The translations under genes and the position numbers were made by a program. The notes below the pieces were generated by a model. The model worked only from the letters and a program-made list of their open reading frames with translations. It did not search any database and was not told the DNA's origin. A stretch of DNA of 64,000 bases from a virus (Duplodnaviria; Caudoviricetes), in the IMG/VR virus record IMGVR_UViG_3300032038_000007, positions 1 to 64,000 of that record; one strand, written 5' to 3'. Below, piece after piece: positions 4,399 through 62,537 of the stretch; position 1 is the first letter of the stretch, and each line of letters opens with the position of its first letter.

Positions 4399-4758
4399 AT
4401 GAACGCTATGCAGAAGAAGATTGCCGCCCGTGCCGCCACCATCTCCGCCCTGTCCCAGATTCTCGAGGAACTCGCCGCCGTCCAGTTCGGAGACGCCAGC
4501 TTCGCGGTTCTCCAGAATGTGGAAGGTCAGGAGATTTGGACTGAAATCTCTGTGAAGGCGAAGGCGTTCACGCCCACCAAGACTTCCCCGGAATTTGACC
4601 CCTTCGTGGCCGCTGAGGAATGGAAGACTGACAAGGAAATCAAGGCCAAGGAGAAGGCCGAGAAGGCCAAGGAAAAGGCGGCGAAGATTGCCCGCGATGA
4701 AGCCCGTCGCGCCGCCAAGAACAACACCGAATCCGGAGAGGAAGAGGAGGGGGAGTAA
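4399..4758 (+). CDS. Hypothetical protein with Lys/Glu/Ala-rich helix
   Basis: Promoter 4320-4348; SD; strongly biased GC3-rich codons. Confidence 0.85.
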   Translation: MNAMQKKIAARAATISALSQILEELAAVQFGDASFAVLQNVEGQEIWTEISVKAKAFTPTKTSPEFDPFVAAEEWKTDKEIKAKEKAEKAKEKAAKIARDEARRAAKNNTESGEEEEGE

Positions 4759-56469: not shown

Positions 56470-56543
56470 GGCCTGATAGCTCAGGTGGATAGAGCAACAG
56501 CCTTCTAAGCTGTAGGTCAAGGGTTCAAATCCCTTTCGGGTCT
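56470..56543 (+). tRNA. tRNA-Arg(UCU)
   Basis: Anticodon arm ACAGC-CTTCTAA-GCTGT. Confidence 0.93.
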
Positions 56544-56804: not shown

Positions 56805-56894
56805 TGGGGCGTAGTTCAATGGCAGAACACCGGTCTCTAAAACCGTTATATCCCTCTGAAGGAGGTGGTCTGGGTTCGAGTCCCAGCGCCCTAG
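56805..56894 (+). tRNA. Amber suppressor tRNA (anticodon CUA), inferred Gln; Trp-like body with 23-nt variable arm
   Basis: Acceptor TGGGGCG/CGCCCTA plus G73; D-arm GTTC/GAAC; CGGT-CT-CTA-AA-ACCG (anticodon 56837-56839); T-arm CTGGG-TTCGAGT-CCCAG. Confidence 0.9.
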
Positions 56895-56943
56895 CTTACT
56901 CTATTAAAATAAAAATAATATGGAGCGTTTATCGCTCCACTAC

Positions 56944-58921: not shown

Positions 58922-59245
58922 ATGTTTGAAGGAAAAGAAAACCAAATTACAGCTGAACACCTGAAAAACGGTGAGGTCTGTAAAATTATTGGATATGGCT
59001 AGTCAATGACGCCTATCCTTAAATCAAGACAGCCTGTAATTGCCGCGCCAATAACGCCAGACACAATGTTAGAAAAAAATGACATTGTCTTCTGCAAGGT
59101 TAATGGGCATTATTATTTGCATAAAATTTCCGCGATAAAGAAGGATTCATATCAAATCTCAAATAATCACGGGCACGTAAATGGAACTATCTCTCGCAAC
59201 CAAATTTTTGGTAAAGTGATAGAAATCCTACAAGAAAAAATTTGA
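58922..59245 (+). CDS. S24/S26 peptidase-like protein (1 TAG=Gln)
   Basis: G-(TAG)-SMTP motif and DIVFCKV..LHKI; GAGG SD before ATG 58922. Confidence 0.75.
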
Positions 59246-59299
59246 CTTTAATTAAAATTTCTAGTATAATATACTTACAAACGGTGAAGAGCCGTGCTT

Positions 59300-59807: not shown

Positions 59808-60156
59808 ATCGCGCAAACTGTATGGTTTCGAGTGCATATACCAGATTGCTCGGCGCGTTATAAAAGAAGAGCAAAGTAAGCACACGGGATGGAAGGAAAC
59901 GAGTCACGTCCTTACCGGCCCTGAGTAGTTACAACGAAACGGGCGGGAGAAGCAGAAATAGTAACTGCACCCACATTACTTGGATTGTGGCTGAGCGCTA
60001 TATAGCTCGCCTAGTATGGGATGGAGGTTGGGGATGTTCCCCACCTCGGAACATAAAAGTAATGCTGTTCCAGTATGCAGTATTACTTAAAGTTCATAAG
60101 GGTTGCGTGTGAACCTCAAACTGGATAGGCCAAAAGCCGAAAGAAAACACGCATAT

Positions 60157-60533: not shown

Positions 60534-60880
60534 GCGGGTATGGTGGAATAGGCAGACACCACAGACTTTTGTAAAACAAAGAGCACTAGAATAGGAAACT
60601 TTCTGAGTGAATGCTGGCTAATTCGGTGAAAGTCCTTATGGGATAACGCCGAGCTAAATAATTGGTTTGCTAGACAGATAAATGTAAGCAATTAAATGAG
60701 TGTACAAGAGTCTCCTCAGCCAATTTAAATGTGTAGAGACTATATACCAGCCACCTAAGTCGTAAGATAAGGTGAAGACATAGTCCAGACTACAACGCGA
60801 AAGCGGCCATAGTAATATGGAGTAGTAAGAAAATCTGTTGCTCTCTGAGCGTGCCGGTTCAAGTCCGGCTACCCGCACCA
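60534..60880 (+). tRNA. tRNA-Leu(UAA) interrupted by a group I intron (exons 60534-60568 and 60830-60880)
   Basis: Spliced anticodon arm ACAGA-CTT|AAAA-TCTGT; long variable arm; ACCA end. Confidence 0.9.
60569..60829 (+). ncRNA. Group I self-splicing intron, 261 nt, no ORF
   Basis: P1 CUU/GAG with U-G at the 5' splice site; P3 GCTGG/CCAGC; P4 TTCGGTG/CGCCGAG; P7 elements GTAGAGACTA...GAAGACATAGTCC; terminal omega-G at 60829. Confidence 0.9.
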
Positions 60881-61158: not shown

Positions 61159-61235
61159 GCCTCTCTATCCCAATTGGCAGAGGAGATTGACTCAAAATCA
61201 ATACAGTCTCGGTTCAAATCCGAGGAGAGGTACCA
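61159..61235 (+). tRNA. tRNA-Leu(CAA) with short variable loop
   Basis: ATTGA-CTCAAAA-TCAAT; 5-nt variable loop; ACCA end. Confidence 0.85.
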
Positions 61236-61399: not shown

Positions 61400-61446
61400 A
61401 CAACTCTTGCCGTGTATATAATCTATAAGAAAAGGTGAAAATAAAT

Positions 61447-61986
61447 ATGAATGAACCAAGACTAAAGATTCTTCCCCCGTGGACTATTCTAGTAAGAAAG
61501 CTAGAAGCGCTATTTGATGGCGACCCTCAGATTGCTTTTAATGTTGACTTTAGTGGTGAGCATCCTGCTGTTGTTCTTGCTTGTAACAATGGAGATAAGA
61601 TTGCGGCCCTAAGCCAGATTCTACCAGATGAAGTGAACTTTGGAAATGTAACACTAAAGATTCTGATTGATGGCGAACCAAGCAACCGTGCCTTTACTAG
61701 TAAGGTTGAACTATTTGATACTGCTTTTGCTAAGAATCCTGCTTATGCTTATTCTGTTTGCCCCGCAGAAGAGGGATACCAGTGGATTGGTACTACTTAT
61801 GTTGTCTTTAATAATTGCGTAGTGCAGTTCGCGGCTGATAATCTAAATGATTGCCACGGTGTTATTAGTACCCTATATGAGACCATTGCTGATGAGCTTC
61901 TAACTGGCCCCGCTACTGAGGGTGTATTCTTTAACACTAATGTTGAGCGCGCGAACCTTGGTCATCCTCTAGGCGAGTGGCCGTAA
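61447..61986 (+). CDS. Hypothetical protein
   Basis: AAGGTG SD; about 179-aa open frame with biased codon usage. Confidence 0.8.
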   Translation: MNEPRLKILPPWTILVRKLEALFDGDPQIAFNVDFSGEHPAVVLACNNGDKIAALSQILPDEVNFGNVTLKILIDGEPSNRAFTSKVELFDTAFAKNPAYAYSVCPAEEGYQWIGTTYVVFNNCVVQFAADNLNDCHGVISTLYETIADELLTGPATEGVFFNTNVERANLGHPLGEWP

Positions 61987-62051: not shown

Positions 62052-62125
62052 TGTCTCGTAGCTCAATTGGTGAGAGCAATCGCCTTATAAGCGATAGGTT
62101 CTGGGTTCAAGTCCCAGCGGGACAA
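62052..62125 (+). tRNA. tRNA-Ile(UAU)
   Basis: ATCGC-CTTATAA-GCGAT; promoter near 61992. Confidence 0.9.
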
Positions 62126-62472: not shown

Positions 62473-62537
62473 GCCGGGTCTGGGAGAGCCGCGGTTTTAT
62501 AAACCGCAGGTTGTCGGTTCAAATCTGACACCCGGTT
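62473..62537 (+). ncRNA. D-armless tRNA-like RNA with UAU anticodon
   Basis: Acceptor GCCGGGT/ACCCGGT; GCGGT-TTTATAA-ACCGC; T-arm GTCGG-TTCAAAT-CTGAC; 11-nt loop in place of the D-arm. Confidence 0.7.

Follow-up and report, generated by a model that had tools for sequence, protein, structure and literature searches.

The group I ribozyme of the Azoarcus pre-tRNA-Ile(CAU), which belongs to the IC3 type, carries GAAA tetraloops on P2 and P9 and an 11-nt-receptor-like P8, and is devoid of P5abc. In the bldA system of Streptomyces, TTA codons are very rare and confined to a few regulated genes. As regards phages, all introns known at the time of the review by Hausner et al. (2014; PMC3984707) were located in protein-coding genes, despite the many tRNA genes that phages possess, and Devoto et al. 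(2019; PMC6784885) stated that introns in phage tRNAs had not been reported previously and termed those described by them enigmatic. In the literature searched, which covered few subscription journals, no earlier report was found that describes group I introns within the tRNA genes of phages, or the phage family considered here. The presented analysis concerns the window, i.e., the whole 64,000-nt stretch of DNA under study, which is the first 64 kb of a 166.6-kb IMG/VR record estimated to be 95% complete. The window contains a tRNA-Leu(UAA) gene split by a group I intron, and the sequence comparisons make it probable that this is a working tRNA-Leu(UAA), the loop of which has been invaded by a compact group I ribozyme, a selfish passenger and not a purpose-built timer.

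The split gene was recognized by ARAGORN when introns were allowed, the 261-nt intron beginning at tRNA position 36, and it is overlooked by the same program without the intron option. The coordinates of all features are collected in Table 1. The insertion is placed within the anticodon, between U34 and A35, and the joining of position 60568 to position 60830 gives an 86-nt class II tRNA that has the loop CUUAAAA and a long variable arm, carries A73 and ends in a CCA encoded by the gene. The splice junction could be fixed independently, because a scan of IMG/VR with the ligated-exon sequence revealed an uninterrupted tRNA-Leu(UAA) in six contigs, and four of them (L092, L094, L096, and L097), with acceptor stem, D, anticodon and T arms nearly identical to the window exons, read …CAGACTT/AAAATCTG… across the same point (the slash marks the inferred junction here and below). 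Exon 1 of the window is 100% identical to the intronless alleles L096 and L097, and the base at which exon 2 starts is the same in the intronless alleles. A spliced transcript would read …CAGACUU/AAAAUCUGUUGCUCUCUGAGCG… across the junction, and the ligated-exon RNA with the variable arm of this phage is predicted to be …CAGACUU/AAAAUCUG…. When the whole split gene was compared by blastn with 50,697 GenBank phage records, no close relative was found, the sole match being a 51-nt tRNA 3'-half of Salicola phage SCTP-2. No credible ORF was found in the intron, either with table 11 or with TAG read as Gln. The identity of the intron is agreed upon by ARAGORN, the RF00028 match, the U.G at the 5' splice site, the terminal G and the intronless alleles. 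Therefore, the observation made in an earlier note, that an ORF-less group I intron separates anticodon bases 1 and 2 of a tRNA-Leu(UAA) gene, is confirmed at the level of sequence, with exact coordinates.

Table 1. Coordinates of the features discussed in the text (window positions, unless given as genome positions or in kb).
Feature	Position	Strand	Remarks
Split tRNA-Leu(UAA) gene	60534-60880	+	ARAGORN with introns allowed: tRNA-Leu(taa)
tRNA-Leu(UAA) exon 1	60534..60568	+	Acceptor 5' strand, D arm, anticodon stem 5' strand, C32 U33 U34; ARAGORN -i
tRNA-Leu(UAA) exon 2	60830..60880	+	A35 A36, anticodon stem 3' strand, long variable arm, T arm, acceptor 3' strand, A73, encoded CCA; ARAGORN -i
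ORF-less group I intron, 261 nt	60569..60829	+	RF00028, covariation, MFE z-score
P1	60566-60570/60579-60583	+	U60568.G60581 at splice site
P2	60584-60609	+	GAAA loop
P3	60613-60617/60747-60751	+	Long-range, part of P3/P7 pseudoknot
P4-P5	60623-60652	+	
P6	60653-60654/60731-60732	+	With 76-nt extension
P7	60736-60742/60781-60786	+	
P8	60753-60773	+	CCUAAG/UAAGG receptor-like motif
P9	60796-60805	+	GAAA loop
P9a	60807-60820	+	
Consensus host-type promoter-like motif TTGACT-17-TATAAT	59242..59270	+	Consensus scan
TTGACT-N17-TATAAT sites in window	1832, 4320, 10881, 15503, 29805, 55999, 57315, 57929, 59242, 61992, 62704	+	
Early genes (GC-rich, small + strand genes)	150-166 kb, 1-19 kb, 56-66 kb		GC3 0.50; TTA 9% of Leu; ATA 14% of Ile; AGA 10% of Arg
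Middle genes (very few TAG codons)	66-110 kb		GC3 0.27; TTA 40% of Leu; ATA 20% of Ile; AGA 25% of Arg
Late genes (recoded)	19-56 kb, 110-150 kb		GC3 0.24; TTA 52% of Leu; ATA 28% of Ile; AGA 30% of Arg
Members of the 12-gene set	Window 63248-64819, 61435-61986; genome 72575-74309, 81848-83119, 91204-93140, 108862-109683, 138191-139177, 142941-144026		

The match to the Rfam model RF00028 extends over positions 60559-60809 (62.8 bits with a gathering score of 50, E 1e-13 to 1e-15, model positions 1-253). In the Rfam alignment, P1 pairs the end of exon 1 with the intron guide sequence and places U34 (U60568) in a U.G wobble with G60581 at the 5' splice site; the last intron base, G60829, stands directly before exon 2. 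Covariation was evaluated in an alignment of the window intron with 21 other short family copies (22 in total), in which the helices were hand-written from the Rfam alignment and the sequence. Standard pairs were present in 90% of cells, compared with 33-40% in a control in which the 3' partners were slid by 1-3 columns. Changes on both sides were found in 30 of 52 pairs, and the observed covariation was reached by none of the 500 shuffles. P3 (110/110 paired cells, with up to four pair types per position), P9 (65/65) and P9a (110/110) combined compensatory changes with 100% pairing, and 109 of 110 cells were paired in P4. A conserved P3-P9 core with compensatory changes is therefore present, with P7 excluded as evidence, since its invariance is uninformative when the search pattern itself selected for P7. 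The MFE z-score of -4.3 indicates that the whole precursor folds well below shuffled controls, and this fold keeps the acceptor, D, anticodon and T stems plus P2, P4/P5, P8, and P9. The ribozyme thus appears to be under selection. Its compact core with P2 and P9 tetraloops, the P8 receptor motif and the lack of P5abc would correspond to the bacterial tRNA-intron type, which may be called IC3-like, the IC3 label being assigned by resemblance; by its insertion point, the intron is of the site class 'Leu.3Ug'. The P8 motif of the family, CCUAAG/UA(U/A)GG, resembles the 11-nt tetraloop receptor, and the window intron has UAAGG in place of the family's usual UAUGG. This departure could be taken to mean that the intron no longer splices and that the tRNA is a pseudogene. 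Such a loss of function is, however, extremely unlikely, because the same variant is common to three other family members, the window intron follows the family consensus at every column conserved at 90% or more, including all conserved core positions, all helices pair, and exon 1 is identical to that of intact intronless alleles.

The family to which the intron belongs was collected with one pattern derived from the P7/P3'/P8/P7' core, with variable gaps, and the same intron core was found in 73 IMG/VR phage contigs and 15 MAG contigs (GTDB genomes). Compared with these relatives, the window intron shows an identity of 69-93%. The junctions were re-derived for each copy from the anticodon stem. 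About 62 viral copies read ACTT/…G/AAAATC, which corresponds to tRNA(UAA) split after U34, six viral copies read ACTC/…G/AAAAT and represent tRNA-Leu(CAA) with C at position -1, the 'Leu.3Cg' arrangement, and two viral copies are suppressor tRNA(CUA) genes split after U35. The ARAGORN calls of tRNA-Phe, Ser, Lys, Gln, and Stop for family copies were rejected as boundary slips, nearly all re-derived junctions being of the tRNA(UAA) type. The 'Leu.3Cg' arrangement was encountered by Williams (2020) in Proteobacteria only, and doubt was cast there on its splicing. In the tRNA-Leu(CAA) copies (L008, L040, L044, L049, and L076), the C before the 5' splice site gives a C-G pair in P1 and no U.G wobble. 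Introns were also seen in short tRNA(UAA/CAA) genes of L020, L036, and L040, which resemble the 77-nt gene at 61159-61235 of the window. The 'bacterial' MAG contigs with the tRNA(UAA)-type intron may be binned phage contigs, because no housekeeping genes were found in the flanks of L089 and L090, which carry an intron of this type, and L085 contains a dense tRNA array.

The intron lengths in the family fall into two groups, one of 200-350 nt and the other of 710-900 nt (a bimodal distribution). In the long copies, an ORF on the sense strand encodes 147-209 aa, with a helix-turn-helix at the N-terminus and a motif of HNH nucleases, and an HNH homing-endonuclease gene is present in about half of the family copies. 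Because the long copies encode such proteins, the family is taken to be mobile by the usual homing-endonuclease route, the window copy being an ORF-less derivative. The site is polymorphic for the presence of the intron, which is found in L004, L005, and L006 (contigs of 77-180 kb with the same tRNA and the same intron, 320-327 nt long and with a different P6 extension) and is absent from L092, L094, L096, and L097. The near-identical alleles without the intron in relatives, along with the homing endonucleases of the family, are the reason for which the intron is thought to be a selfish passenger. The P6 extension of the window intron (60659-60726) is identical in L024 and L066, the cores of which differ, and this suggests an exchange of peripheral modules among introns. 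In L024, for example, P3 has a different sequence, with full compensation.

No remnant of the family HNH gene was found in the window intron, no homologue of the family HNH proteins was found anywhere in the phage genome, and a Pfam search of the flanking ORFs revealed no free-standing HNH adjoining the tRNA-Leu(UAA) gene. The window intron therefore cannot move unaided, and for this reason the retention of the immobile copy could reflect some benefit. A possible benefit is immunity to homing, in which the ORF-less intron destroys the HNH cleavage site of the introns of co-infecting phages and thereby keeps the tRNA cluster safe from cleavage and from marker exclusion. Among the introns of T-even phages, this principle is well known. 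HNH-encoding copies and intronless targets do occur in the same kind of metagenome-derived phage contigs, and the ribozyme core of the window copy is fully intact, although this copy has neither an ORF nor a genomic HNH homologue. As an account of the locus, immunity is nevertheless unlikely, since HNH cutting at the site is putative and the idea, which is compatible with the passenger model, explains persistence only.

The suppressor tRNA(CUA) gene of the window (56805-56895) is intronless, and its split homologue is located in L005, a 180-kb IMG/VR contig (L005:4341-4735), where a group I intron is inserted between U35 and A36. The two suppressors match base for base on either side of the insert, and the junction of the L005 suppressor is thereby fixed too. 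In the tree, the L005 suppressor intron groups with the tRNA-Leu introns of L024, L022, and L058, away from the Leu intron of L005 itself, and this clustering with the Leu introns of other phages points to a transfer between phages plus a change of site. A second split suppressor, with a 669-nt intron, was seen in L064. The nrdD gene, encoding an anaerobic ribonucleotide reductase, is interrupted by a second group I intron of the phage studied here at genome positions 104675-105372 (outside the window; L002:1501-1760; L100:675-2464). It matches RF00028 with 46 bits, just below the threshold, and has an HNH endonuclease ORF upstream. The presence of this second group I intron with an HNH ORF in the same genome makes a splicing-competent setting plausible for the tRNA intron as well.

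When TAG is read as a sense codon, the ORF coverage increases from 65% to 92%, which indicates that the phage recodes TAG. A single ORF of 5,990 codons with 152 in-frame TAG codons lies in the late block (genome 119211-137183, - strand), preceded by ORFs of 2,049 and 732 codons, also with TAG codons. A Bacillota host is plausible, because the only relatives of the virion-module protein encoded at 142941-144026 come from phages of gut metagenomes and from large phages that infect Enterococcus, Lactococcus, Bacillus, and Clostridioides, in agreement with the previous description of the phage as Bacillota-type. The gene of the anaerobic ribonucleotide reductase points to an anaerobic habitat. ARAGORN made 18 tRNA calls in the genome, 15 of them at 56-63 kb; one is a truncated tRNA-Ile(UAU)-like sequence at 62473, which leaves 17 tRNA genes, one of them split. 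The tRNAs with U34 comprise Leu UAA, Ile UAU, Arg UCU, Lys UUU, Gly UCC, Val UAC, Gln UUG, and Pro UGG. Among them, the tRNA-Ile(UAU) (at 62052) and tRNA-Arg(UCU) (at 56470) noticed earlier as matching heavily used codons are both present. In general, the tRNAs of the phage fit the codons ending in A or U on which it draws heavily. A tRNA with the Leu anticodon CAA at 61159-61235 (77 nt, 5-nt variable loop) has a class I shape and not the long-armed class II shape of bacterial tRNA-Leu. A drum RNA (RF02958, 75.8 bits) is located directly upstream of tRNA-Val, at 60049-60155, and in the tRNA arrays of L005 and L006 there are matches slightly or somewhat below the threshold, namely to ROOL (98.1 bits with a threshold of 99.1, confined to the 3' part) and to cow-rumen-3 (72-74 bits with a threshold of 86.7).

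The earlier note had also considered that the intron protects the precursor from anticodon nucleases. In a broader form of this idea, the precursor or the gene, as long as it is split, would be hidden from the anticodon nucleases of the host or from other defences that sense tRNAs. Phage tRNAs are believed to take the place of those host tRNAs that defence nucleases have cleaved (literature cited in PMC7824862), and the insertion is located within the anticodon itself, but nothing specific to this idea was found in its favour. The spliced tRNA would have an ordinary anticodon loop and be equally exposed, one of 17 phage tRNA genes is split, near-identical intronless alleles persist in relatives, and the family carries homing endonucleases. 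The chance that evasion of defence is the right explanation is thus quite remote.

The promoter-like motif at 59242 is the nearest of its kind upstream of the run of tRNA-Gly, Asn, Asp, Met, drum RNA, tRNA-Val and tRNA-Leu(UAA). The exact TTGACT-N17-TATAAT sequence occurs at 28 + strand sites in the whole genome, in the early, middle and tRNA regions; of the late blocks, that on the + strand contains a single site (29805), and that on the - strand (110-150 kb) is devoid of the motif. Because the tRNA run follows a motif typical of early and middle genes, it is suggested that transcription of the tRNAs by the host polymerase would begin early, at variance with a gate that acts late. Such a gate, similar to bldA, had been proposed in the earlier note; on this reading, slow or conditional self-splicing would delay tRNA-Leu(UAA) and hold back the TTA-rich late genes. 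For the codon analysis, genes were called with TAG as sense and an amino-acid-composition score, a procedure that recovers 4399-4758 and 61435-61986, and were grouped by region into three classes; a first greedy ORF set was rejected, as antisense frames had been picked in GC-rich regions.

Several of the observations behind the gate proved correct. The three genes named as free of TTA contain none (0 of 4 Leu codons in 4399-4758, 0 of 17 in 61447-61986 and 0 of 51 in the DUF2828 gene, the last against roughly 17% expected at GC3 0.41 by hand extrapolation from the fit), and TTA is indeed very common in the recoded late genes, being their commonest Leu codon. The supposed split between early and late genes stood in one part: TTA is rare in, and nearly absent from, the GC-rich early genes (6.5 per 1000), but it makes up 29-61% of the Leu codons in the TAG-free middle genes, which encode topoisomerase II, DnaB helicase, primase and DNA polymerase. 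With 1,477 codons, TTA is the most used Leu codon in the genome, and is thus neither rare nor confined. The binomial model for TTA, in which GC3 was measured on other codons, attributed to GC3 a likelihood-ratio of 568 out of about 590, and the gene class added 22 (late +0.29, early -0.41 logits). Correction for base composition therefore accounts for most of the claimed codon contrast, and a small residual remains. The occurrence of one or more TAG codons in a gene added a likelihood-ratio of 31 for TTA, 83 for ATA, and 3.5 for AGA (overdispersion 1.5-2.6), and after GC3 correction the TAG-containing genes were enriched in TTA (odds ratio about 1.6) and ATA (about 2.7). Because this enrichment survives the correction, some coupling between codon use and phage tRNAs exists.

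The residual left after GC3 correction is for the most part due to a 12-gene set containing no more than one ATA, in which TTA makes up 14% and CTA 35% of Leu codons and one TAG occurs in 3,790 codons, the set being almost free of ATA, TAG, and AGA. It includes the Ro60-like DUF2828 gene, a DNA ligase, a ClpP-like protease, a permease, a Sak4-like protein, a dUTPase and two virion-module genes, so that early, replication and virion genes are mixed in it, and it is possibly highly expressed or host-tuned. CTA as the favoured Leu codon of this set is unusual. The real split is one of base composition plus a small gene set that avoids the codons of the phage tRNAs, and it is not defined by timing. 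The scarcity of TTA in early genes, the DUF2828 gene, the enrichment in TAG-containing genes and the fact that the amber suppressor of relatives is split by the same kind of intron are what can be said for a splicing-dependent gate. It is disfavoured by the replication genes, by the virion genes at 138191-139177 and 142941-144026, which avoid TTA, ATA, and TAG, by the location of the tRNA array behind the same host-type promoter motifs as early and middle genes, by the near-identical intronless alleles and by the homing endonucleases of the family. The gate is therefore very unlikely, and the idea of TTA as its target does not survive the codon counts. There is likewise only a slight chance that splicing is slow or condition-sensitive (guanosine or Mg2+) and sets when phage decoding starts, of UUA here and of UAG in L005 and L064; if this were true, the moment at which the phage changes over to its own set of codons would be determined by a ribozyme.

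In the probable case of a working tRNA with a selfish intron, a host-type promoter would drive transcription of the precursor along with that of the tRNAs beside it, pairing of the exons would form the anticodon stem, P1 would present U34 in the U.G wobble, where guanosine attacks, and the terminal G60829 would direct exon ligation, with the 86-nt class II tRNA with A73 and CCA as the predicted product. The mature tRNA would help to read UUA, which this AT-rich phage uses more than any other Leu codon, both in its middle and in its late genes. The U34 tRNAs of the phage serve A-ending codons, and one of them has apparently been invaded by a mobile self-splicing intron, the family of which probably spreads among phage tRNA genes via intron-encoded HNH homing endonucleases. 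The window thus adds one clean ORF-less group I intron in a phage tRNA gene, along with a large, mobile family linked to HNH genes. This family resides in tRNA genes of big phages from rumen and gut, among them those of the suppressor tRNAs that bring about the recoding of stop codons. Standard tRNA finders miss such split genes, and studies of codon use and tRNA supply in phages will be in error if introns are not taken into account. With a length of about 200 nt, the small copies represent natural compact ribozymes. The new elements are one more member of the family, an intronless suppressor linked to its split homologue and a negative test of the TTA gate.

With respect to known systems, the locus shares with bldA the tRNA species, tRNA-Leu(UAA), and the scarcity of TTA in one gene class, but in this phage no Leu codon is more frequent than TTA, which occurs in the replication genes as well. 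The introns of T4 td, nrdB, and nrdD and of the SPO1 DNA polymerase gene are likewise phage-borne, self-splicing and often endonuclease-mobile, but they interrupt mRNAs, whereas the window intron interrupts a tRNA. The Azoarcus pre-tRNA-Ile(CAU) intron is a similarly small tRNA-borne ribozyme with a similar layout, a likeness that concerns the architecture, and it differs in the tRNA and in its site after position 36. The tRNA introns of Lak megaphages also reside in tRNA genes of stop-recoding gut phages, but they have been assigned to no intron class (PMC6784885), whereas the window intron is a clear group I ribozyme. A counterpart at the same position is the cyanobacterial trnL intron. Group I introns were sought in 100 genomes of the phylum holding one MAG hit, 24 genomes matched, and 18 fetched loci were tRNA-Leu(UAA) introns with the junction GGACTT/…G/AAAATCCG; these 18 examples show the same junction as the window intron, so that the earlier claim of a site shared with the cyanobacterial and plastid trnL(UAA) intron holds. 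Both have the same gene and site, CUU/…g/AAAA (U34/A35), with U at -1 and a 3' G, a compact core of ~200-300 nt and exon pairing in the anticodon stem. The window intron differs in being located in a phage and not in a cell or organelle, and many members of its family carry HNH genes. Its identity to the cyanobacterial trnL introns is 46-51% over ~200 columns, at which distance the alignment is uncertain, and is no higher than that to cyanobacterial introns from other tRNAs. In a maximum-likelihood tree of 204 shared columns, with the family ascertained by one core pattern, the phage and gut-MAG introns formed one clade with 100% SH-aLRT on a long branch, apart from the cyanobacterial trnL introns. 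Therefore, the window intron shares its site and architecture with the cyanobacterial and plastid trnL introns, but it appears to belong to a lineage other than theirs.
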